This document shows, piece after piece, positions 36,926 through 52,597 of a stretch of 64,000 nucleotides of DNA. The translations under genes were made by a program, and so were the position numbers. The stretch's first letter is position 1; every line of letters starts with the position of its first letter. Under the pieces are notes generated by a model that saw nothing but the letters and a program-made list of their open reading frames with translations, made no database searches and was not told the DNA's origin. The DNA is from Candidatus Omnitrophota bacterium (GTDB taxonomy: Bacteria > Omnitrophota > Gorgyraeia > Gygaellales > Profunditerraquicolaceae), in NCBI GenBank assembly GCA_018812825.1, contig JAHJCJ010000067.1, positions 383 to 64,382 of the forward strand. Direction: 5' to 3'.

Positions 36926-38149
36926 TTATTGGCCTCCGAAAGCTAGGACGTTAATGCTTTGATTATGGAAATAAGCCCGGCCAAGATAATTTATAGATTT
37001 TAGCGGGGCCTGTTCACCATAAGTATATATTCCTATCAAAGGGATATTTTCACCGAACACCGCTTTAATTATATCAAGCTCTCTTGAACGATGTCTGCCT
37101 AAGAGCGTAAATCTTGAAGCCGAATCAAAAACCATCACGAATTTTGTTTTCTGCGCCCCAAGATTCCTTTTTGCTTCTTCGCAGGAAGTTACTGCCGCGG
37201 CAAGGCAAGAGTCTTTAGTGCCAATCATTAACCGGATTGGACTATCTTGAGGGATGTCTCCTTGGGTAACCAGTGATCCATCATCTTTTATGGAGATAAT
37301 GTTGCGCAGAAGGTATTCCTTTTCTCCGTGTAGATAAATACCTATTGGATAGAAAATAGATATGCGCCGCAGTTCTTTAGCTAGCTCTAAAGCGTTCTTA
37401 GCAAAGTAGTCTTCATAAAGTTTTACTGCGGGCTCGCCGTTAATTTCCTTAATAATATTTCCTTCGGCCTTGGTAACGTAACGTATCTTTCCTAAGGCTT
37501 TCCATCCGTGTTTAATCCCAAACCCGAAATTTATTTTTCCACCGAAAAGCAGTCCGCAGCATGCATCTGTAAATACGTCTTTATCGAAATACTGAAAGGT
37601 TTTTGTAAAGGCAAAATTATCCGAGGCCGAAGCTCCGATTAAGGGAAAGCTTCTGCCTAGGTTTTCCTGGAGCCCATTAATTAAACTTGTCCCATCTGAT
37701 ATCAATCCGTCTGAAAAAATTAAGCTTAGGTTCCTGCGCACATCTTTACAGCCGTATAATAATTTTTCTCCTAATTCCCTGCCAGCAGCGATAGGTGTTT
37801 TTTTGTTCACATCTTTAACCAGGGCGAGATTTAAAAATATTTGTTGGTTTAAGCTAACTAGCAGAATGGCAAAACCGTGTTTGTGTATCCCCTTATTCGT
37901 TATAATCCCTAAGCTGCTGCAGCCTAATATGGGAATTCCGCCTAATAAATTATTTGCGATTTTTAAAACCAGCGGATGCGCGAATTCTATCGTAGTAAAG
38001 ATAATAGCTAAATCTCCGCGTGTTTTTCTTAATCCGATTATCGCCTGTCCAACTGCTTCATTAGCGGCTTGGATATGGTCCCTGTTTTCACTAAAGCCAA
38101 GGCTTATATTCATGCCAGTCAGTATATAATGTAAATATAGGAGGGTCAA
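36926..38149 (-). CDS. FIST-domain sensor protein (FIST_N + FIST_C)
   Basis: ~400-aa soluble protein with paired Gly-rich 'LGCSSLGII' and 'IGIYTYGEQAP' motifs characteristic of FIST domains; first gene of the minus-strand signalling operon. Confidence 0.55.
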   Translation of the reverse strand: MTLLYLHYILTGMNISLGFSENRDHIQAANEAVGQAIIGLRKTRGDLAIIFTTIEFAHPLVLKIANNLLGGIPILGCSSLGIITNKGIHKHGFAILLVSLNQQIFLNLALVKDVNKKTPIAAGRELGEKLLYGCKDVRRNLSLIFSDGLISDGTSLINGLQENLGRSFPLIGASASDNFAFTKTFQYFDKDVFTDACCGLLFGGKINFGFGIKHGWKALGKIRYVTKAEGNIIKEINGEPAVKLYEDYFAKNALELAKELRRISIFYPIGIYLHGEKEYLLRNIISIKDDGSLVTQGDIPQDSPIRLMIGTKDSCLAAAVTSCEEAKRNLGAQKTKFVMVFDSASRFTLLGRHRSRELDIIKAVFGENIPLIGIYTYGEQAPLKSINYLGRAYFHNQSINVLAFGGQ

Positions 38150-38202: not shown

Positions 38203-38280
38203 GGCCCCATCGTCTAGCCTGGTCCAGGACGTCAGGTTCTCAGCCTGTAAACACCGGTTCAAATCCGGTTGGGGCTACCA
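38203..38280 (+). tRNA. tRNA-Glu (anticodon CTC), CCA encoded
   Basis: Manual fold: acceptor GGCCCCA/TGGGGCT, anticodon stem TCAGG/CCTGT with loop TTCTCAG, T arm ACCGG-TTCAAAT-CCGGT, 3' ACCA; overall similar to bacterial tRNA-Glu. Confidence 0.8.
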
Positions 38281-38438
38281 TAGCGACGAACATATCTTGT
38301 ATAGGCGGTATTCTCTACCACAATAGGGAGTATCGCCCTTTTTATTGTTTCCCACCTTTTCCCATCCAAATAGCCTGTGAATACTAAATGAATACTAAAA
38401 ACTGGGTGTATTTTAATAACCAAAAATGGTAGGAAAAG

Positions 38439-38954
38439 ATGAAAAGATTAACTCCAGCCTGTAGATTAGTTTTATTTTCGCTTTGGCATAAGCGAGATTA
38501 CTTTAGCAGAAAATCCATGCTGGAGAAGGACGGTTCTTTCTATTATGACGATAAAAGATTGTCTGAGGAAACTGGATTATCTGGAAAGACGATACTCCGA
38601 GTTAGGCGGTTTCTGGTGGGGAATGGTTATATAATAGTAGAAATAGGACACTTTAAAGGCAAGGCAACTAAGTATTGGGTTTGTAAGAAGCCCGACAGAA
38701 AGTCTCCCTTTAGCCCTTTGTCAAAGGTAGACAATCAGTTCCCCAAAGCCCCCCAAAATGTCCCTATAAACAAAGTGAATAACAAAGATAATAACAATAG
38801 AGATTTAATTAAGGATAAACCTTTAGAAACATTTACTAAGGAAGGTGTAAGGTCTTTAGTTAATGTTCAAGGGGTTGAGTGGGTTAGGGGGCTTTTGCTT
38901 AGGAATGGAGTGGATGAGGCAGAGGTGGCTGGATTATTAACAAGCACAAATTAA
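38439..38954 (+). CDS. Hypothetical protein with a putative HTH ('RLSEETGLSGKTILRVRRFL'); island cargo
   Basis: ORF with RBS; HTH-like segment; first gene after tRNA-Glu. Confidence 0.3.
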   Translation: MKRLTPACRLVLFSLWHKRDYFSRKSMLEKDGSFYYDDKRLSEETGLSGKTILRVRRFLVGNGYIIVEIGHFKGKATKYWVCKKPDRKSPFSPLSKVDNQFPKAPQNVPINKVNNKDNNNRDLIKDKPLETFTKEGVRSLVNVQGVEWVRGLLLRNGVDEAEVAGLLTSTN

Positions 38955-38990
38955 GAAGAGTAGCTTAATGATTTAGTATATTCTGAGCTT

Positions 38991-39410
38991 ATGGGTAGAG
39001 ATAGATGGTCAAGAAGATATGCGGTAGAGGATTGTAGGGTAGTTAATATTACCAAGCTTAAACAAGAAGGATATCTTGAAGGTATTTCTGTGGTCCAGAG
39101 TGAGATTCTTCTTCAGTATTCTAGGGAGATAATGGTCAGTGAATATGAAGAATACGATTATCCTATTAAATTAGAGTCTACGCCTTGTTTCTTTGGAGGG
39201 CGTAGGTGGTGGTTCATATGCACTAAGAATCCAGATGGAGTTTACTGTGGTAATAGAGTTGGGAGGTTATATTTGCCTCCAAACGCCAGATATTATAGCT
39301 GCAGGCATTGTCATAACCTAACTTATACGAGCTGTAGGAAAAGCCACGATTTGGATAGCATATATAGGCTAATGACTAGATTTGGAGTTTATAAAAATAG
39401 GTACAAATAA
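38991..39410 (+). CDS. Hypothetical Cys-rich (zinc-ribbon-like) protein
   Basis: 'CFFGGRRWWFIC...YCGNRVGRLY...YSCRHCHNLTYTSC' contains CxxC/CxxH pairs. Confidence 0.3.
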   Translation: MGRDRWSRRYAVEDCRVVNITKLKQEGYLEGISVVQSEILLQYSREIMVSEYEEYDYPIKLESTPCFFGGRRWWFICTKNPDGVYCGNRVGRLYLPPNARYYSCRHCHNLTYTSCRKSHDLDSIYRLMTRFGVYKNRYK

Positions 39411-39700
39411 TCCTCCCGGGCAATTTAATGGGTTTTTACGAGGGGTTAAAGGATGGTAAACAAACGAACGTTTATTTATTTTTTGAACTCCCCCCTATGG
39501 GTATATAATATGTGGTAAAAGGAAGTAGCTATGAGCTGGAAAATGTTTGGGCAGATAGTATTGTTAATGACAATCGGTGCTTTAATTTTCATGCTTATGA
39601 AATATGTTATGATGCAGTGTCCGATAATGGGTAAAAGTATGAAATGTTCTATGCACACCGTCCAAAAGTAAAAGAACGGTTTAAGTAACCTACTATTATA

Positions 39701-39789
39701 ATCATTCTACATAAGGGCTGGACTTAACCGTTCAGCCCTTTTTCTTTGCTCACTAAATTGCTTACAATCTTGGGATTTGTGGTAAAATA
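39701..39789 (+). repeat. Island repeat copy 1: terminator hairpin (GGGCTGGAC-ttaacc-GTTCAGCCC + T-tract) followed by a conserved promoter-like segment
   Basis: Near-identical to the copy at 40905-40993; hairpin at 39715-39738, T-tract 39739-39747, then 'ctcactaaattgcttacaat...tgtggtaaaata' (extended -10 'TGgTAAAAT'). Confidence 0.7.
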
Positions 39790-39925
39790 TGATTTAGGAA
39801 TACTTCCGGTATAGCTTATTATTAGTATTGGATATTTTAGAAACAGTTTTTTAGGTTTTGGGTGAAAAAAGGGAGGCCAGACGAGGCTCAAGAGGATATT
39901 TTTAATAATTACAGCGCTGTTTCTT

Positions 39926-40594
39926 TTGGGAGCAGATTATTCAGAGGAAGGATTTTACGTGCGCAGAGTAAATATGATTAATTCGCAGATAAAGGCAAGG
40001 GGCGTAAGTGATGAGCGTGTACTCAAGGCAATGTTTAAAGTGGAAAGGCATTTGTTTGTTCCGCTTGCGCATAGGGACCTTTCTTATGAAGACGGCCCTC
40101 TGCCTATCGGTAAAGGCCAGACTATTTCTCAACCCTATATAGTTGCTTTGATGACAGAGCTATTGGAATTAAAAGAAGGGGAGAAGGTTCTGGAAATAGG
40201 AACAGGCTCAGGGTATCAAGCAGCAATTTTAGCAGAGTTAGCCAAAGAGGTTTATACTATAGAGTTACTTAAGCCGTTGGCGGAGCGCTCCCAGAAATTG
40301 CTTAAAGAATTAGGCTACGAAAACATTAAGGTTAAACATGGAGACGGTTTTTTAGGTTGGTCGGAATATGCTCCTTTTGATGCCATAATTGTTACTTGCG
40401 CTCCGGAAGAAATTCCTCCTGTTTTGTTTGAGCAATTAGCTGAAGGCGGGAGGCTGGTTATTCCTGTTGGTTCAGACTATCAGGAGTTGAGGCAAATTAA
40501 GAAAAAAGAAGGAAAAATTATATCCAAAGATATTATTTCGGTAAGATTTGTACCAATGTTAAGAGGCGAGGAAAGTAAAAAGCAATTTAAGTAA
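39926..40594 (+). CDS. pcm: Protein-L-isoaspartate O-methyltransferase
   Basis: 'GKGQTISQPYIVALMTELLELKEGEKVLEIGTGSGYQAAILAEL' is a classic PIMT motif I/II; the true start may be the internal 'MINSQ' (~39974). Confidence 0.85.
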   Translation: MGADYSEEGFYVRRVNMINSQIKARGVSDERVLKAMFKVERHLFVPLAHRDLSYEDGPLPIGKGQTISQPYIVALMTELLELKEGEKVLEIGTGSGYQAAILAELAKEVYTIELLKPLAERSQKLLKELGYENIKVKHGDGFLGWSEYAPFDAIIVTCAPEEIPPVLFEQLAEGGRLVIPVGSDYQELRQIKKKEGKIISKDIISVRFVPMLRGEESKKQFK

Positions 40595-40614
40595 CACTAT
40601 TCACTCTTCCGTAG

Positions 40615-40680
40615 TGGCTGGGCTTAACCGTTCAGCCTTTTAGTTTGTAATTTTAGGATTTGTGATAGAATATATTGTAG
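40615..40680 (+). repeat. Island repeat copy 2 (degenerate)
   Basis: 'tggctgggcttaaccgttcagcc ttttagtttg taattttaggatttgtgatagaatata' shares the hairpin loop/3' arm and the downstream -10-like segment with the other copies. Confidence 0.5.
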
Positions 40681-40904
40681 GTAGTAGGTTTGTATATGCT
40701 AAACTAAAAGAAGGGATTATGATAAAAAAAAATAATTATATGGGGGTTGATTCTGTTAGCAGCATATTTTTTTTACAAAAAATACATGGTTGATACATTG
40801 GAACCGTTCTTTGGAAGAATTCAAAGGGATAGAGGTAAGGTAGAGCTTTTTCAACAAAAAGTTCCAGACTACAAGGTTGAGGAATAAATAATCAGTAACA
40901 TCAT

Positions 40905-40993
40905 AATCATTCTACATAAGGGCTGGACTTAACCGTTCAGCCCTTTTTCTTTGCTCACTAAATTGCTTACAATTTTTGAATTTGTGGTAAAAT
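40905..40993 (+). repeat. Island repeat copy 3 (near-identical to copy 1, including the upstream 'atcattctacataa')
   Basis: Direct comparison with 39701-39789: same hairpin, T-tract and 'ctcactaaattgcttacaat' + 'ttgtggtaaaata'. Confidence 0.7.
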
Positions 40994-41040
40994 ACGATTA
41001 ATGGGTTTTTATTTGAGATAAAGCAAAAGGGGAAACAATA

Positions 41041-42324
41041 ATGAAGCTCCAAAGTCGTAGAATAATGCTGTTTGTCTTAATGGGGATATTATTTTTGGGT
41101 ATTCATTTTGTTTTTGCTGAAATAATTACTCTTAAATCAGGCGGGACTGTAGAAGGGGAGATTATTGAGAAGACGGATAAATACGTAAAAATATATTTAC
41201 ATGGAGTGAAGCTTAAGTATTTTATGGATGAGATTAAGGATATTGATGGGCAGAAGACTGTTTCTTCAGACAGTAATCATTTTCCTCCTATTAATGAATC
41301 CGCGTTATTTGAAGCTGTAAAGAATGTTGATATTCTCAAGGTTAAACAGCTTATTAGTGAAGGTGTAGATGTAAACGTAGTAAATTATTCTGGAGCTACT
41401 CCTTTGGTTTGGGCTATAAACGGATGCCATAAGGATATAGTTGAGCTATTACTTTCTAAGGGAGCAAAAGTCAACACTGTAGATTCTGGTGGTATGACAC
41501 CCCTAATGTGGGCGGCACATAGGTGCAATAGGGATATAATAGAATTACTTCTTTCTAAAGGTGCAGATGTTAAAATGAAGGATAAGAATGGTAAAACAGC
41601 TTGGATTTGGTCGGTAGTAAACCGGAATAAAGATGCTAAAGACGTAGTGGAATTTTTTCTTTCTAAAGACGTGGATGTTAATGCAAAAGACAATTCTGGC
41701 GGAACAGTTTTAATGTGGGCAGCTGGCATGGAAAATAAAGAAATCGTTGAGCTACTTCTTTCTAAAGGTGCAGATGTGAATGCAAGAAATAGCCAAGGTT
41801 TAACAGCGTCAATGTATGCTGGAAAGAATGGATTTAATGAAATAGCGGAGCTTCTTAGGTTAAAGGAAGAACAAGTGCAACCTACAAAAAACTCCGGTAA
41901 AGTTGATTATTATGAAACGCAAAAAACGGTTAAGGCAGATGTTTCTTATTTACCTCCTAGTGGTTGGCTGGAAGGCCGAAATGCTCACAATAGTCCAATT
42001 GTTTATTCTCCTGATGGGAAAGCAACCATATTAAATCTAGTAAGAGGACCAGCGAATATAATTACTTTCCAAAATTCCTTATTACTTTTTAGGCAGAAGG
42101 CAAAGCCAATTTCCGAAGAAAAAATTACCTTTTTAGGTAATCCGTGTTATGTTTTTACTAGCGAAGAAACAAATAGTCGCGGAGGCAAGGTAAAAACCAT
42201 GACATATATGTTTCTTGCAAAAAGTAAGCTCTATACGCTTGTTTATGGTGCTGTGCCAGATTACTTCGATACTGATTATCCATCTTTTAAGGATTTCTTA
42301 AATACTTATTGCATAATGGACTAA
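41041..42324 (+). CDS. Secreted ankyrin-repeat protein with an N-terminal 'LKSGGTVEGEIIEKTDKYVK' module
   Basis: Signal peptide; ~5 ANK repeats ('GATPLVWAINGCHKDIVELLLSKGAKVN', 'GMTPLMWAAHRCNRDIIELLLSKGADV', ...); its N-terminal 40 aa is ~50% identical to the N-terminus of the ORF at 1487. Confidence 0.7.
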   Translation: MKLQSRRIMLFVLMGILFLGIHFVFAEIITLKSGGTVEGEIIEKTDKYVKIYLHGVKLKYFMDEIKDIDGQKTVSSDSNHFPPINESALFEAVKNVDILKVKQLISEGVDVNVVNYSGATPLVWAINGCHKDIVELLLSKGAKVNTVDSGGMTPLMWAAHRCNRDIIELLLSKGADVKMKDKNGKTAWIWSVVNRNKDAKDVVEFFLSKDVDVNAKDNSGGTVLMWAAGMENKEIVELLLSKGADVNARNSQGLTASMYAGKNGFNEIAELLRLKEEQVQPTKNSGKVDYYETQKTVKADVSYLPPSGWLEGRNAHNSPIVYSPDGKATILNLVRGPANIITFQNSLLLFRQKAKPISEEKITFLGNPCYVFTSEETNSRGGKVKTMTYMFLAKSKLYTLVYGAVPDYFDTDYPSFKDFLNTYCIMD

Positions 42325-42354
42325 TAGACGCTTTGTCTATAGCCATTATTAAAA

Positions 42355-42412
42355 GAGCTGGACTTAACCGTTCAGCCCTTTTTCTTTGCTCACTAAATTG
42401 CTTGCGATTTTG
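42355..42412 (+). repeat. Island repeat copy 4
   Basis: 'agctggacttaaccgttcagccctttttctttgctcactaaattgcttgcgatttt' is the same hairpin + T-tract + conserved tail. Confidence 0.65.
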
Positions 42413-42616
42413 AAAGAGAGTGGCATAATTAAAAAAAGGAGAAAAAAGTTGAGTAAGAAGGATATTTTAAACATGAAAAGGTAAGTGTTCTTGCCTCTCT
42501 GAATTAATTTTCTGCATTCGGAAATATGATATCTTACGATTTGGTGTTCTTGTACAATTACCTAAGCCATGTTATAATTTTAGAATGGTTTAGATCTCAT
42601 AACGAGAGAGGAAACA

Positions 42617-43249
42617 ATGGGATTAATATCGCTTTTATTTAGTAACCCGGCCATTTTTGTCATTCTGGCTATTATACTTCTTTATTCTGTTATCCTACAT
42701 GAAGTTGCTCATGGTTGGGTGGCGCATCTTTTTGGCGATGATACGGCTATTCTTTCCGGTAGGCTTACCCTTAATCCTGTATCACACCTTGATCCCATAG
42801 GCACACTCATGCTTTTCCTGGTAGGGTTTGGTTGGGCAAGGCCGGTGCCGGTAAATTACTCTAGTTTTAGTAATACTCGTTTTGGGTTATTCTGCGTTGC
42901 CTTGGCAGGATGTTTAACGAATATACTTATAGCAACAACAACATTAATCATATTACAGTTTGGGGTTGTTAATACCAACTCACTGCTTTTCTCTATTTTG
43001 CCCATTGTTATAAAAATAAATATTATCTTGGGTGCCTTTAATCTGATCCCGATTCCTCCGCTTGATGGTTCAAAAATCTTAATGAGTTTTCTTCCTTATA
43101 AAGCGCAAGAAAGCTTAGGGAGTATAGAGCCTTATGGGTTTTTTATATTAGTTTTTCTGCTATTCACGGGGTTATTGAATCCCGTGATAATTTTTATGCA
43201 GAATTTAATATATGGTTTGATAGGTTTTTTATTTAGTTTCTTCAGATGA
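42617..43249 (+). CDS. Site-2-protease-family (peptidase M50-like) membrane metalloprotease
   Basis: HExxH inside a TM helix ('ILHEVAHGWVAH') and 'GRLTLNPVSHLDPIGT' typical of the short S2P-like family. Confidence 0.65.
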   Translation: MGLISLLFSNPAIFVILAIILLYSVILHEVAHGWVAHLFGDDTAILSGRLTLNPVSHLDPIGTLMLFLVGFGWARPVPVNYSSFSNTRFGLFCVALAGCLTNILIATTTLIILQFGVVNTNSLLFSILPIVIKINIILGAFNLIPIPPLDGSKILMSFLPYKAQESLGSIEPYGFFILVFLLFTGLLNPVIIFMQNLIYGLIGFLFSFFR

Positions 43250-43294
43250 ACAACAAATTATGAATATTTTAACATTCTCAATCCTTAAAAGATC

Positions 43295-44107
43295 ATGCTA
43301 ATGATTCTAAAAATCAGTATAGTTTCATTATTAATTATTGGTTCTTTACTTTTATTCTTGAGATACATCGAAACACACACCCTTTTCTTTCCCACAAAAG
43401 AAATAGCCTCTTTTCCTGACCGAGCTAATCTTAAGTTCCAAGATGTTTCCTTTAAGGCAACCGATGGTGTGAAATTGAATGGGTGGCTTATTCTGTCCAA
43501 AGATTCAGAATACACAATCCTTTTTTGTCACGGCAATGCAGGTAATATTACTCATCGTATAGAGAAATTAAAATTTTTCAATGACTTTGGGTTTAGTGTT
43601 TTTATATTTGATTATCGGGGCTATGGTAAAAGTCAGGGAAAACCATCGGAAAAAGGTTTCTACAGAGACGCCAAAGCTGCCTACGAATATTTGCTGTCCC
43701 GAGGCGTAAATGGTAACCAAATTATAGGCTATGGTGAATCTATAGGAGGGGCAGTCATTGTTGATTTAGCTTCGAGAGAAGGATTAAAAGCAATAATATT
43801 AGATAGTACCTTAACTAGTGTAAAAGATATGATAAAATTCGCCTATCCATTTATTCCTTATTGGGTATTTTCTAGTCGGTTTGATTCAGAAACTAAGATA
43901 AAGTCGGTTAAAATTCCTAAGTTAATTATACATAGCCTAAATGATGAAATTGTTCCTTTCCAATTAGGCAAGAAACTCTATGAAGTTTCTCCTGAGCCAA
44001 AAGATTTTTTACAGATTCAAGGAGGACATAATAGCAATTTCTATGAATCTGAGGGGCTCTTAAGAAAGAAAATAGGGTTTTTTATTGAAAGTCTAAAAGA
44101 ATCTTAA
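43295..44107 (+). CDS. Alpha/beta-hydrolase-fold protein
   Basis: 'ILFCHGNAGNITHR', nucleophile elbow 'GESIGG', and a C-terminal 'HSLNDEIVPF...GGHN' (Ser-Asp-His arrangement). Confidence 0.7.
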   Translation: MLMILKISIVSLLIIGSLLLFLRYIETHTLFFPTKEIASFPDRANLKFQDVSFKATDGVKLNGWLILSKDSEYTILFCHGNAGNITHRIEKLKFFNDFGFSVFIFDYRGYGKSQGKPSEKGFYRDAKAAYEYLLSRGVNGNQIIGYGESIGGAVIVDLASREGLKAIILDSTLTSVKDMIKFAYPFIPYWVFSSRFDSETKIKSVKIPKLIIHSLNDEIVPFQLGKKLYEVSPEPKDFLQIQGGHNSNFYESEGLLRKKIGFFIESLKES

Positions 44108-44119
44108 GTTTAAAGGGTG

Positions 44120-44162
44120 AGAAGGCTGGACTTAACCGTCTGGCCCTTTTTCTTTGTAAAAT
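44120..44162 (+). repeat. Island repeat copy 5 (hairpin with compensatory changes GGCTGGAC/GTCTGGCC + T-tract)
   Basis: 'aaggctggacttaaccgtctggccctttttctttg'; base pairing is preserved through G-U pairs. Confidence 0.55.
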
Positions 44163-44484
44163 AGCTTGTTAGATTTTGTTACCTTTTGCGACTATTGTAG
44201 TAGGAGGTAAGAGATATGGCTATTTGCCCAGATGAAAACGATATGGCTTGCTACATTGACGGACTGTTACCTGATGATGAGGTTAGACAGATAGAGAGGC
44301 ATTTGCTTGACTGTGATAGGTGTCGGGAAATAGTAGATGTGACCAAGAAGGTTGTTGTTTGGGTTAAGGGTTAGGGGTATAATCTTATCAATACCACAAA
44401 GGAGTAGTAATGGGGTTTAAGAAGTTAAATCTAAGGGCAATTCTTTAAAAAGGGAGTTGCCTTTTATTAAAAAAGGAGGCTTTA

Positions 44485-44793
44485 ATGTTTTGTCAAAAAT
44501 GCGGAGCAAAAATAAACGATGAAGCTGTTATCTGTGTCAAGTGTGGTTGTGCAGTATCTGGAAAATCAATTAGCGGAGTGCAAAAAGATGGTAAAAATTG
44601 GTTAGTGACACTATTGCTTTCCCTTTTTCTTGGATATTGGGGTTTTGACAGATTCTATCTTGGTTACATAGGATTAGGAATATTGAAGTTATGCACTTTT
44701 GGAGGTTGTGGTATATGGTGGCTGATAGATTTGATTTTAATCATAACAAATAGTATGGTAGATTCAGATGGCAAACCGCTTAATAAGACATAA
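44485..44793 (+). CDS. Zinc-ribbon + TM2-domain membrane protein
   Basis: 'CQKCGAKI...CVKCGCAV' then the TM2-domain pattern 'KNWLVTLLLSLFLGYWGFDRFYLGY...GGCGIWWLIDLILI'. Confidence 0.6.
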   Translation: MFCQKCGAKINDEAVICVKCGCAVSGKSISGVQKDGKNWLVTLLLSLFLGYWGFDRFYLGYIGLGILKLCTFGGCGIWWLIDLILIITNSMVDSDGKPLNKT

Positions 44794-45064
44794 ATTAAGC
44801 AACTTTATATTACCATTCATATCTTTAAGAAGCCCAGAAGGAATAACTGCCGTATTTGGGATTGCGATACTAATATTATTCTTTTTAAATCCAGGGCACA
44901 TTAATCTACCAGATTTATGCCTCATTAAAAAGATTTTCGGGTATTGTCCAGCCTGTGGCACAACAAGGGCTCTGGCGTGTTTCTTCAAGGGGGAATTTAT
45001 AGAAAGTATAAAATATAATTTCAATGTTATATTAACTGCACCTTTGATTACCCTTCTTTTTTAA
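44768..45064 (+). CDS. DUF2752-like membrane protein
   Basis: 'GYCPACGTTRAL' is the CPxCGxTR motif of DUF2752; two TM segments. Confidence 0.45.
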   Translation: MANRLIRHKLSNFILPFISLRSPEGITAVFGIAILILFFLNPGHINLPDLCLIKKIFGYCPACGTTRALACFFKGEFIESIKYNFNVILTAPLITLLF

Positions 45065-45438
45065 GAAATCTTATTAAAGTAACAATAAAATACGGATTTT
45101 TTCAGAGAGCAGGGTAATAGAAGCATTGTGGAAACGAATCGTTAGTAAGAGGGTCAGGTCACCTATTTCCCTTAGTCAACTTTCAGGAAGAGGGAAAGTT
45201 TTGAAAGGCAAAATAAGGCCTAAGGAGATATTTCTTAAAAACAGGCGAAAGAACACAAATCACTGCTGAAAGCACCACCCAACACGTCCAGGATGACCAT
45301 AACTTCCTGCCAGTGAAGCTTCTCAAACTCTTTCAAAATTACGTTGACGACTTAGTATTGTTATAGTAATCTATCAATGAGAATTTAGTTCTATAAAAAC
45401 AACTTGCGTTTTGGGTTTGCTCCTTGTGAAGGTTATTA

Positions 45439-45622
45439 GGTCATCAACCGAGTCCTGCGGTTTATCTGCGGGGCCGTTGGGGCTAAAATTAACCGGTTCT
45501 CCCACCTAGGTCTAAAACATGTGGCGGGACTACGCCGTTTAGCAGAAAAAGAATCGGCTTGAAATCCGGTTGGGGCTATTAGGTCATCAACCAGGTCTTG
45601 CGCGCAGCCGTAGAGATTATAC
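45439..45622 (+). repeat. att-like direct repeats: two copies of 'GTTGGGGCTA' (the tRNA-Glu 3' end; the second extends to 'GAAATCCGGTTGGGGCTA') interleaved with two copies of 'TTAGGTCATCAACCRAGTCYTGCG'
   Basis: 17-18 nt identity to the T-loop-to-3'-end of tRNA-Glu (38260-38277); arrangement A-B-~95nt-B-A' in a gene-free 0.7-kb region. Confidence 0.5.
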
Positions 45623-45794
45623 TTGCTCGTTTACACTCGCAAGTATTTTGTCAGATAAAAACTTAAGGTGTTTAATTCGGGCATACGATTTATGTTCATT
45701 GCTGCGCTCATTCCATAAATTGTGGCTTCATTAAATTTTGCTTGCATTTTATAGAGCTTTATAATAGAATTTAAATATTAATAGGGAGGGATGA

Positions 45795-46037
45795 ATGCGT
45801 AAACATTTAGGTTTCTTAAAGGTTTCCAGCGCAGTGGTTAAGGTAGCTGCCTGGATTTTTTTATTTCTGGGGATTTTAGGTGGAGTTTCTTTGCTTTTAG
45901 GCTCAGTGCCGGGTAACCCCCGTTGGATGGGGGCTATTATCTTAGCTTTTTATGTTTTTGTTTTTTTCTTTTTATTTCTTACTGCAAAAATAGCCGATCT
46001 TTTGGTTAAGGTTATCAACGAGATCAAGGCGGAGTAA
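45795..46037 (+). CDS. Small membrane protein (two TM helices)
   Basis: RBS 'agggaggg' upstream; hydrophobic helices 'VAAWIFLFLGILGGVSLLLG' and 'IILAFYVFVFFFLFL'. Confidence 0.3.
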   Translation: MRKHLGFLKVSSAVVKVAAWIFLFLGILGGVSLLLGSVPGNPRWMGAIILAFYVFVFFFLFLTAKIADLLVKVINEIKAE

Positions 46038-52099: not shown

Positions 52100-52597
52100 C
52101 TATCGCTCGAATACATCAAATTGATTTATCAGATGGTCTTGTTTTATCCCGAATCTGCTGTTCCAACTGCACCAACGGTATTCCGCAGGTGATTTTACTA
52201 AATTTGCTCTTGCCGGATTAAATTCTACGTAGGTGATGCAATCTAAAAGGTATTTATCTTCTTGTACCAGCATGTCTTTGTATCTTCCTTGCCATAGGTG
52301 ACCCGCCTTATTATATTTTTCATTAAACCAAATTGTGTATGTTTGATTTAATCCTTGCATAATTTTTTGCAAGTCTTTTCCCAGAAGTACTTTTATTATT
52401 AGATGAATATGATTTGGCATTAAACAATAGCCGTATAATTCAAACCGATATTTATGTTTATAGTGCTTAAGCAAATCTAAATATCTTAGAAAATCGCATT
52501 CATCGATAAAAGTTATTTGTTTTTGATTTCCTCTAGCTATGACATGGTGTATCGAATTATCTATGATCAACCTACTCGGTCTTGGCATATTTATCAC
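52100..52597 (-). mobile_element. IS200/IS605-like Y1 (HUH) transposase of the REP-associated (RAYT) type
   Basis: 'HHVIARGN', HUH motif 'CLMPNHIHLII', 'WQGRYKDMLV' and 'YVEFNPARANLV' are typical of TnpA(REP)/IS200 transposases; flanked by inverted REP-like hairpins. Confidence 0.75.

Follow-up and report, generated by a model that had tools for sequence, protein, structure and literature searches.

A 7.3-kb island at the 3' end of tRNA-Glu in an Omnitrophota genome, probably a CIME-like remnant of an integrative element

[quoted passage not shown] With a probability of about 0.68, we read it as a decayed integrative-element remnant resembling a cis-mobilizable element (CIME). The kind of island is ordinary and well known, a decayed mobile-element island. 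Relative to related genomes it is an insertion with a junction on either side, bracketed by a direct repeat and with no integrase in the window; sequence comparison with these relatives argues decisively for insertion. All genes, repeats, and terminators described below lie on the plus strand.

The tRNA-Glu(CTC) gene at 38203-38280 is intact (ARAGORN; Rfam tRNA, 54.2 bits) and encodes CCA at 38278-38280. In all relatives homology to the window stops at 38277, the discriminator base of the tRNA, and in the closest ones tRNA-Glu ends in ...GGGGCTA followed by TTAAG, without CCA. An intrinsic terminator carried by the island, in what would be the left arm of the element, begins 24 nt past the CCA (38304-38347); the terminator scan returned a 14-bp stem followed by CTTTTTATTG, a sequence not found in the empty-site relatives. 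The 17 nt that start in the T-loop and end with the discriminator base (38261-38277), AAATCCGGTTGGGGCTA, form the putative attL identity block. At class-II tRNA/tmRNA integration sites the identity block starts in the T-loop, as in this island. The 17-mer has exactly two copies in the window, the one inside tRNA-Glu and an exact one at 45562-45578, with a chance expectation of 0.19 even when 3 mismatches are allowed. The identity extends to 19/20 between 38258-38277 and 45559-45578, and no viral contig in IMG/VR matches the 17-mer. The original prediction had recognized that the tRNA end recurs but placed the copy at ~45568-45585, about 6-7 nt off. The two ends differ in what follows the repeat: CCA and the island-specific terminator at tRNA-Glu, sequence homologous to the closest relatives' native flank at the distal copy.

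The order FIST-tRNA-Glu-p80-SurA-Cpa is kept in 23 species-level Omnitrophota relatives. The empty tRNA-Glu site for which the original prediction had looked to related genomes was found in 4 of the 23 (L021, L006, L010, and L017), where tRNA-Glu is directly followed by p80-SurA-CpaB-CpaC-CpaF; L021 is the closest relative (FIST identity, 93%). None of the ten island genes was present at the tRNA-Glu site of any of the 23. To the right of the island, homology resumes at 45559 with the relatives' tRNA 3' end and flank, and at 45732 with L021. The first conserved core gene, p80 (45795-46037; tblastn synteny in 13 relatives), lies outside the island. Unrelated, non-mobile genes occupy the site in other relatives: L008, L012, L014, and L015 encode a CPBP-like protein of 606 aa there, and L004, L018, and L023 a membrane protein of 835 aa. 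In L001, L003, and L005 the MAG contig stops precisely where tRNA-Glu reaches its 3' end, a pattern that a strain-variable hot spot would produce. The identical island recurs in a second MAG (L041) and in the reads of five sequencing runs and is therefore no assembly artifact. It is probably fixed; no circular or empty-site allele of the host species was recovered.

Short repeats fill the right end of the island. The leftmost, O* (45413-45435), showed 11/23 ungapped matches to the last 23 nt of tRNA-Glu, and by eye 7 of the 12 mismatches were transitions; as good a match occurs at only 1.3% of window positions (p about 0.013). This weak likeness makes it a possible decayed copy of the T-arm/acceptor 3' half. 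Unit A (45436-45485), a 50-nt tRNA-linked unit, consists of the 24-nt repeat TTAGGTCATCAACCRRGTCYTGCG, a hairpin, and CCGTTGGGGCTA, and is homologous to the native tRNA-Glu flank in L004, L015, L021, and L007. Direct reading placed the shorter tRNA fragment GTTGGGGCTA at 45476-45485; its recurrence had been noted correctly, but its position (~45483-45492) had not. Unit B (45486-45561) aligned as a decayed homologue of a 72-75-nt unit 3' of tRNA-Glu in L012, L014, and L037-L040. It is followed by the distal 17-mer (45562-45578), the candidate attR identity block, which lacks a CCA after it and would represent the displaced native tRNA-Glu 3' end. Unit A' (45579-45635), a second and more decayed copy of unit A that reads TTAGGTCATCAACCAGG after the 17-mer, would be native flank under the preferred model. 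The 24-nt repeat is indeed paired with the tRNA fragments, at 45436-45459 and 45579-45602 (0 expected by chance), and can be lengthened to 29 nt with 86% identity. As a further point in favor of the original prediction, the distal fragment and the sequence after it proved homologous to a native tRNA end with its flank: 45559-45608 aligned to the 3' end of tRNA-Glu and the adjoining sequence in L004 (83%), L007 (91%), and L002 (91%).

Similar units occur without any island. In island-free L012, L014, L015, L019, and L037-L040, short units that end in the same piece of the tRNA-Glu 3' end occur 50-220 nt past the gene, and the 17-nt fragment itself is found 72-219 nt downstream. L040 has the array tRNA / B-17mer / A-like / p80, L012, L014, and L037-L039 have tRNA / B-17mer, and L015 has two A units in tandem. 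The distal 17-nt copy could therefore pre-date the island, and duplication of the tRNA 3' end, which had been taken as the mark of integration, is on its own no proof that this island integrated at this locus, although that interpretation is supported here. Likewise, the nested repeats are best taken as a decayed tandem array, one of the two possibilities initially proposed; they are no proof of the other, two successive integrations, in which the native flank would not be duplicated.

The absence of an integrase held in several searches of the window. No recombinase family was detected in ORFs of at least 170 aa at E≤1e-5, and tblastn of four integrases from related elements against the window gave nothing below E=0.2. 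The non-coding stretch at 45065-45412, where integrase remnants had been suspected (45.1-45.4 kb), contained none by tblastn or six-frame Pfam; stop-free pieces of 45064-45630 in six frames gave no credible Pfam match, and Rfam returned only chance miRNA-type matches on the non-coding stretch. Across the whole window, no integrase, excisionase, or remnant of either was found.

The genes that open the island have homologues beside integrases. p171 (38439-38954) encodes a winged-helix protein resembling phage/plasmid replication initiators or DnaD-like loaders. It matches two phage replication-initiator families, PHROG 428 (E=5e-9) and PHROG 186 (3e-7), and in Pfam only HTH_36 at E=0.06; in L024 and L032, integrases are found 0.5-2 kb away from its homologues. 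Direct reading revealed a tandem 11-nt direct repeat upstream of it (TGAATACTAAA x2, 38378-38399), possibly an operator or iteron. p139 (38991-39410) encodes a conserved four-Cys Zn-ribbon protein with 18 homologues sharing invariant Cys and Trp positions; it matched no family in Pfam or PHROG, and its AF2 model (pLDDT 78.5) matched no fold in the PDB. One p139 homologue adjoins Xis, a serine integrase, and tRNA-His in L028, and another lies near a tyrosine integrase and tRNA-Ser in L031. The serine/tyrosine integrases beside p171 and p139 homologues abut tRNA-His, tRNA-Ser, and tRNA-Thr. By these matches and neighborhoods both are mobile-element genes, which would form the element backbone beside attL.

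The remaining genes are cargo of Omnitrophota type, and their content agreed with the initial listing on Pfam annotation. They comprise pcm, encoding protein-L-isoaspartate O-methyltransferase (39926-40594; PF01135, E=6.7e-67), an ankyrin-repeat protein with a signal/TM N terminus (41041-42324; Ank_2, E=8e-57), a site-2-protease-like Peptidase_M50 membrane protein (42617-43249; PF02163, E=1.2e-12), an alpha/beta hydrolase (43295-44107; Hydrolase_4 and Abhydrolase_1), a 52-aa, anti-sigma-like zf-HC2 ORF (44216-44374; Pfam annotation of the identical L041 gene), a Zn-ribbon plus TM2 domain protein (44485-44793; PF05154, E=3.8e-19), and a DUF2752 protein (44768-45064; Pfam). The last is 98 aa long here and 116 aa long in the sister MAG, a difference caused by a T6/T7 run at 45057-45062. 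A 46-aa ORF (39531-39671) was placed by mapping a gene called in L041, whose island is identical, onto the window, and two further ORFs gave no Pfam family above threshold. The cargo is nothing exotic. The hydrolase belongs to a graded series of Omnitrophota orthologs: 43280-44120, covering this gene only, has 85.6% nucleotide identity to L048/L049, there in a different, IS-rich context; a protein ortholog with 76% identity has a housekeeping neighborhood in L046/L047; and the L014 genome carries an ortholog elsewhere, also in a housekeeping context. GC content is equal in island and flanks, and no compositional contrast was detected between them.

As a curiosity, the spaces between cargo genes hold terminator-promoter modules that are near-identical to each other. 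Copy 1 (39695-39794) has a hairpin, GGGCTGGACTTAACCGTTCAGCCC, and a T-run, followed by CTTACA-16-TAAAAT with TG. Copy 2 (40616-40681) is diverged, copy 3 (40900-40999) matches copy 1 at 95% identity across 100 nt, copy 4 lies at 42335-42434, and at 44124-44156 the terminator hairpin occurs a fifth time without the shared promoter part. The cargo is laid out as separate promoter-gene-terminator units, with a common module that is specific to the island.

In the preferred model, the element remnant would span 38278 to about 45561 and have entered by site-specific recombination within the 17-bp identity block between T-loop and discriminator base. The tRNA-Glu gene would now be completed by the left arm of the element, with its CCA and strong intrinsic terminator, while the original CCA-less 3' end, along with the native flank, would have been shifted 7.3 kb downstream to become attR at 45562-45578. 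The repeats at 45.41-45.63 kb would be tRNA-linked units in a decayed array, O*-A-B-O-A', whose inner part O*-A-B came with the right arm, and a circular form would carry the junction B-17mer-CCATAGCGACG. The integrase may have been lost or supplied in trans, which would leave an integrase-less island between att sites, CIME-like. Against this model weigh the missing integrase, the lack of a circular or empty-site allele, the uniform composition, the 17-nt fragments in island-free relatives, the ordinary look of the hydrolase, and the absence of the 17-mer from IMG/VR viral contigs. The right junction would fall at 45561/45562 in this model but may instead be 45435/45436. An unlikely alternative takes the latter: the insertion would be real, but the fragments at 45476-45485 and 45562-45578 would belong to a pre-existing native array A-B-A' and not to an attR, and an island of 7158 bp (38278-45435) would end at the decayed 11/23 remnant. 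Just such arrays exist in L040, L012, L014, L037-L039, and L015, the 23 nt left of unit A resemble the tRNA 3' half, and the inner unit A is at least as similar as A' to the native flanks of L004, L021, L007, and L015 (0.58-0.66 vs 0.54-0.63), L002 alone being closer to A' (0.53 for A vs 0.63). However, attP/attB identity at 45435/45436 would be limited to about GG-TA, which fits poorly with intact island genes, and the distal 17-mer is perfect where everything surrounding it is decayed. Unit B-O is also absent from the four closest informative relatives, L021, L002, L004, and L006, so that a native array would need several independent losses; a single import with the island is more parsimonious.

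It is quite improbable that no mobile element was involved and that this ancestral variable region either retained genes since lost from the relatives or gained the block by homologous recombination between the conserved flanks. The uniform GC content, the vertically graded hydrolase, which looks like an ordinary chromosomal gene, and the unrelated non-mobile genes at the site in other relatives would suit such a history. Against it, 0/23 relatives have any island gene at the site, the L014 hydrolase ortholog sits elsewhere, p171 and p139 are of mobile-element type, the left junction falls exactly at the tRNA end with a new CCA and terminator brought in, and the block is bracketed by the perfect 17-bp repeat. 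Least probable is that the repeats at 45.4-45.6 kb make up a structured RNA gene (tmRNA, tRNA-like RNA, or sRNA) and are no recombination scars. Five relatives have a well-conserved unit B, in which GTGGCGG/CCGCCAC motifs form two hairpins with a single change from G-C to G-U, unit A folds into a hairpin, and functional sRNAs exist among E. coli tRNA-linked repeats (PMC8144298). But ARAGORN and Rfam detected no tmRNA or other RNA family in these repeats or in L037, 45405-45640 folds no better than shuffles (z = +0.63), and the window copies are the most decayed, with 7 kb and several terminators between them and the tRNA promoter.

CIME-like decay remains the preferred reading, and CIMEs are decayed ICE/IME islands that retain attL and attR (PMC5704250). 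As in these, a direct repeat of the target-gene 3' end flanks the island, integrase and transfer genes are absent, few backbone genes are kept, and further att-like repeats adjoin, as in accretion arrays. Unlike in CIMEs, the backbone appears phage-/plasmid-like (replication-initiator-like p171) instead of conjugative, and this tRNA-Glu site has no known functional relative of the island that carries a matching integrase. In Dehalococcoides ssrA islands the identity boundary also lies in the T-loop, and about half lack an integration module and have been proposed to be CIMEs (PMC3146451). They share with this island the position 3' of a tRNA-like gene, boundaries formed by a ~20-bp direct repeat of that gene's 3' end, repeat arrays in a strain-variable region, and uncultivated or streamlined anaerobes as hosts. 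In contrast, the target here is tRNA-Glu, a DsiB-type integration module is missing, and one island stands with very short 50-86-nt units in place of multi-kb tandem islands. The tRNA-linked repeats (TLRs) of E. coli (Egan & Landy 1978) are short units just 3' of a tRNA gene, sometimes in tandem, each ending in the last 17-19 nt of the tRNA (PMC8144298). This description fits units A and B, both those of the window and those of the relatives, but they share no sequence homology with TLRs, and in the window the island parts them from tRNA-Glu. For Prochlorococcus, Coleman and coworkers reportedly described in 2006 islands that are hypervariable and integrase-poor, lie at tRNA genes, and have partial repeats of the tRNA 3' end; their hosts are said to be small-genome uncultivated or oligotrophic organisms and their cargo host-like in composition. 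Compared with what is reported of those islands, the one at tRNA-Glu is much smaller.

The island lies directly 3' of an intact tRNA-Glu(CUC) gene with encoded CCA, which was located at 38203-38280 by ARAGORN and Rfam (54 bits). The last 17 nt of the tRNA before the CCA, AAATCCGGTTGGGGCTA, span the T-loop to the discriminator base and occur exactly twice in the 64-kb window, at 38261-38277 (attL) and 45562-45578, with 17/17 identity. The chance expectation for this 17-mer is 0.19 with 3 mismatches allowed, and the repeat lengthens to 19/20 identity. A 24-nt repeat, for which the chance expectation is none, was found at 45436-45459 and 45579-45602, and the shorter fragment GTTGGGGCTA at 45476-45485. 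All of the repeats described in the original prediction were located in this way; its description of the two tRNA fragments was accurate, and only their coordinates were ~6-7 nt too high. In comparison with related genomes, nucleotide homology ended precisely at 38277, the tRNA base directly preceding the CCA, and restarted at 45732. In the closest relatives the tRNA sequence GGGGCTA continues into TTAAG, without CCA. In the window it is followed by CCATAGCGACG and then by an intrinsic terminator with a 14-bp stem at 38304-38337. At the far end, 45559-45608 aligned with the tRNA 3' end and the native downstream flank of three relatives (L004, L007, and L002) at 83-91%. This arrangement, in which an intact tRNA gene has an insertion at its 3' part and a distal direct repeat of that part, corresponds to the classical pattern of integration at tRNA 3' ends: the element supplies a new tRNA 3' end, and the old 3' end with its flank is displaced to the far junction.

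The loci used for comparison were fetched via the FIST-domain gene at 36926-38149 (minus strand), which lies upstream of the tRNA. They represent 23 species-level relatives, all Omnitrophota MAGs, with 58-93% protein identity in this gene. The conserved gene order is RR-GGDEF, histidine kinase, FIST, tRNA-Glu, p80 (the first core gene to the right of the island, 45795-46037), SurA-like, CpaB, CpaC, and CpaF. The search for an empty tRNA-Glu site that had been proposed with the prediction was successful: in L021, the closest relative (93%), and in L006, L010, and L017, p80 lies within ~170-220 nt of the tRNA and is followed by the SurA-Cpa genes. No homolog of any island gene was detected at this locus in the 23 relatives (0/23), so that the block is present here and missing at the same site in close relatives. 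The main interpretation is supported by these empty sites. The same island sequence was recovered with 99.7-100% identity from a second MAG (GCA_018824865.1, L041) and from contigs of five sequencing runs; the island is real. All of these represented the integrated form, and neither an empty-site allele of this species nor an attP/attB or circular junction was found among them. One short-read contig of the same island (L044, SRR27925880) ends at window position 45563 and includes only the first two bases of the distal 17-mer. A break at this position agrees with neither of the two de Bruijn points (45578 and 45591) expected for attP or an empty-site variant.

In other relatives the interval from tRNA-Glu to p80 is occupied by other genes: L008, L012, L014, and L015 encode a CPBP-like membrane protein of 606 aa, and L004, L018, and L023 a membrane protein of 835 aa, accompanied in L023 by extra defence-like genes. 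This makes the site a hot spot of variable content, with at least six distinct contents at this single position among the loci compared. In L023 (740-5340) the order after tRNA-Glu is CCA, terminator, a 357-aa protein, a SEC-C-motif protein, and the 835-aa membrane protein; this locus has the left-junction architecture of the window with different cargo, and no tRNA-fragment repeat. The contigs of three relatives, MAGs of different species, break off precisely where tRNA-Glu ends on its 3' side (L001 1-17, L003 2-18, and L005 1-17). These ends were attributed to the behaviour of the assembler at a strain-variable site, which suggests that strain-level heterogeneity 3' of the tRNA is also present in these populations. 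On the other side of the tRNA, between FIST and tRNA-Glu, the close relative L002 (7343-10000) contains an inserted gene that may be transposase-like; its 793-aa product has an HTH at the N terminus, together with an extended repeat region rich in Glu and Lys.

The prediction that no integrase remains in the window held. No recombinase domain (Phage_integrase, Resolvase, or Recombinase) was detected in any ORF of ≥170 aa in the whole window, and tblastn of two tyrosine integrases, two serine integrases, and two Xis proteins from related elements against the window gave nothing at E<0.2. The stretch at 45.1-45.4 kb, suggested as a place for integrase remnants, yielded none by tblastn or six-frame Pfam searches, and stop-free six-frame pieces of 45064-45630 had no credible Pfam match to such a remnant. 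The island ORFs comprise no integrase or conjugation genes. A prophage was rejected as well, as structural, packaging, and lysis genes are absent among the island ORFs; a small terminase was seen only in the relative L024. A search of IMG/VR for the 17-mer as a phage-borne attP gave no exact match. The sole transposase or mobile-element gene elsewhere in the window is an IS200-like Y1 transposase (52100-52588, minus strand; PF01797, E=8e-16), 6.5 kb downstream of the island and directly after the Cpa pilus genes, with no island repeats near it.

The first two genes of the island provide a connection to integrative elements. The product of p171 (38439-38954), the first gene after attL, matches PHROGs of a phage/plasmid replication initiator and a DnaD-like loader (E=5e-9 and 3e-7). 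The neighboring p139 (38991-39410) belongs to a small family of 120-211 aa (homologs P0020-P0037) with four invariant cysteines and the invariant motif STP...GGRRWWF.CP...CGRRV..LY...F.CRHCH.LTY.S. No Pfam or PHROG family was found for p139, and its AF2 model (pLDDT 78.5) had no PDB match at E<0.4. Both genes are mobile-element hallmarks, with homologs located in integrative elements near integrases that abut tRNA genes. A p171-like gene occurs with a small terminase and a large serine recombinase in L024, and with HTH_17 and a tyrosine integrase adjoining tRNA-Thr in L032. A p139-like gene occurs with an Xis-like HTH_17 gene and a large serine recombinase overlapping tRNA-His in L028, and is followed by a tyrosine integrase at tRNA-Ser in L031. 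In L026 p171 and p139 form an adjacent pair with 81% nucleotide identity to the window. The p139 family is a candidate accessory factor of integration modules, and genes like p171 and p139 are of use for recognizing integrative elements in Omnitrophota. A tandem 11-nt direct repeat, two copies of TGAATACTAAA at 38378-38399, lies 40 nt upstream of the p171 start and may be an operator or iteron. The non-coding flanks of a 52-aa zf-HC2 ORF in the island (44159-44208 and 44423-44468) resemble L024 2103-2152 and 2377-2423 with 74-83% identity. In L024, the serine-integrase element with the p171 homolog, these sequences surround an unrelated 51-aa ORF; the likeness may represent a second, weak link between the island and that element.

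The Pfam content of the enclosed ORFs agreed with the heterogeneous cargo that had been listed. For the alpha/beta hydrolase, homologs from Omnitrophota form a graded series (87, 85, 82, 80, 76% ...). The 87% homolog lies in an IS3-rich context, and the 76% protein ortholog (L046/L047, from the genome that contains L014) is located among housekeeping genes (methyltransferases, MiaB, MiaA, HflX, and HrcA-GrpE-DnaK-DnaJ). At the nucleotide level, 43280-44120 is 85.6% identical to the copy in the IS3-rich context (L048 5307-6147 and L049 3239-4079), with unrelated flanks. This homology is confined to the gene, starting at the RBS and running slightly beyond the stop codon, and it stops 4 nt short of a terminator hairpin; the pattern suggests single-gene mobility. 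Across the island the GC content is 0.33-0.39, against 0.38-0.43 for the flanks, and the transition shows no distinct step. Because the GC content resembles that of the flanks, and because of the pattern of hydrolase homologs, the cargo is host-like and was probably drawn from related Omnitrophota. The cargo genes are separated by five copies of the terminator hairpin GGCTGGACTTAACCGTTCAGCC with a T-run (hairpins at 39716, 40616, 40921, 42356, and 44124; modules at 39695-39794, 40616-40681, 40900-40999, 42335-42434, and 44124-44156). Three of the five run on into a shared TG-extended promoter, and two 100-nt terminator-promoter copies are 95% identical. All copies lie inside the island; neither the remainder of the 64 kb nor any other fetched locus yielded one, except for contigs with the same island. 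An integron or cassette array was rejected because the repeats consist of a 24-nt terminator hairpin, a T-run, and a sigma-70-like promoter instead of a 57-141-nt attC, and no integrase (IntI) is present. The inter-gene repeats are ordinary terminator-plus-promoter modules. Near the right end, a T6 run at 45057-45062 is T7 in the sister MAG L041, which gives a DUF2752 ORF of 98 aa in the window and 116 aa in L041. The difference reflects either a sequencing error in the homopolymer or a genuine frameshift polymorphism. A look-up of the 98-aa product in other samples gave no match, which was ascribed to the gene being called differently elsewhere.

The right end of the island carries an array of short units in the order O*-A-B-O-A', where O is the distal 17-mer. 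O* (45413-45435) is a tRNA-like remnant with 11/23 matches (p ~0.013). A (45436-45485) ends in CCGTTGGGGCTA, the decayed B (45486-45561) ends in the 17-mer, and A' (45579-~45635) follows it. Relatives in this clade likewise have short units 3' of tRNA-Glu, all of which terminate in a fragment of the tRNA-Glu 3' end. Unit A (~50 nt) is made up of TTAAG..., a hairpin, and CCGGTTGGGGCTA; L004 contains it, L015 has two tandem copies, and decayed versions are present in L021 and L007. In unit B (72-75 nt), four GTGGCGG/CCGCCAC motifs form two hairpins, and the unit terminates in the 17-mer. It lies directly 3' of the tRNA in L012 (8330-8430), L014 (9790-9892), and the four metagenome contigs L037-L040 (for example, L037 4062-4165, L038 2305-2405, and L040 13-116), where it is far better conserved than the sequence after it; it is not called as a tRNA and has no Rfam match. 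Units equivalent to A or B follow tRNA-Glu directly in L012, L014, L015, L019, and L037-L040; the empty site of L040 has the array tRNA, B, A-like unit, p80. A metagenome scan for unit B plus the 17-mer returned only arrangements of tRNA, B, and 17-mer, and no integrase-bearing element. In L015 (3397-3474 and ~100 nt downstream, minus strand) two perfect tandem 50-nt copies (CCAATGCTTTACCGAGTCCCGCACGTTTTTTGCGGGGCCGGTTGG...) follow tRNA-Glu, and each ends in a tRNA 3' fragment. These perfect copies indicate that the arrays grow by unequal crossing-over or slippage.

Several explanations of this array were weighed. In the preferred model the perfect 17-mer at 45562 would be attR and O*-A-B would be the right arm of the element, perhaps captured through an earlier imprecise excision. 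The attP would then read ...GAATCGGCTTG-AAATCCGGTTGGGGCTA-CCATAGCGACG..., and the attB ...CACCGGTTC-AAATCCGGTTGGGGCTA-TTAGGTCATCAACCAGGTCTTGCG.... We assign this model a probability of roughly 0.55-0.7, based on the perfect identity of the repeat, its boundary in the T-loop, and the absence of unit B from the four closest informative relatives (L021, L002, L004, and L006). Alternatively, A-B-17mer-A' would be a native array and the junction would lie at 45435/45436, with an attB of ...GGTTGGGGCTA-TTAGGTCATCAACCGAGTCCTGCGG.... Such arrays do exist at empty sites, but 45435/45436 would then show practically no att identity, next to intact island genes; we consider this model unlikely. A and A' are about equally similar to unit A of the relatives, and similarity favours neither junction. 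Under either one the insertion is at the tRNA 3' end. The prediction had offered two successive integrations or a decayed tandem array for the nested repeats. Two simple successive integrations were rejected because the native flank is present twice, whereas the inner junction of a second integration would adjoin element sequence; the decayed tandem array is the better of the two options.

The A and B units could also have a function of their own, with unit B containing integrase arm sites or encoding a tRNA-linked RNA. The concern that the repeats might be parts of a tmRNA or another RNA gene was not borne out. ARAGORN found three tRNAs and no tmRNA in the window, Rfam searches at gathering and E-value thresholds gave no credible match in 44900-45900 or in unit B of L037, and the predicted fold of 45405-45640 was no better than that of shuffles. 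Units A and B fit the definition of the tRNA-linked repeats (TLR) known from E. coli (PMC8144298), which are units 3' of a tRNA with an end that repeats its last ~17-19 nt. In the window, 7 kb and terminators lie between the units and the tRNA promoter. A more far-reaching proposal would regard the units not as scars but as a functional landing pad or tRNA-linked RNA, conserved in Omnitrophota, that captures DNA repeatedly via an integrase acting in trans, with the terminator-promoter modules and the mobility of the hydrolase reflecting integrase-free cassette shuffling. We consider it highly improbable.

For annotation, ~7 kb of this genome is accessory and was probably delivered by a mobile element. 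An insertion hot spot at tRNA-Glu is documented in the Omnitrophota, a phylum known almost only from MAGs, and assemblies at this site often break exactly at the tRNA 3' end. Integrase-less blocks flanked by att sites have been defined as CIMEs (PMC5704250). The island fits this definition, since no integrase remains in the window and att sites are kept at both ends; integration and transfer genes are absent from it. No new mechanism is involved, as integrase-less att-flanked islands at tRNA and tmRNA genes are already well described, and the island is a new example of this well-known type at a tRNA gene in a poorly studied phylum. Among described natural systems, the ssrA islands of Dehalococcoides come closest: about half of them are without an integration module, and they are delimited by 20-bp repeats of the 3' end of ssrA, likewise with the boundary in the T-loop (PMC3146451).
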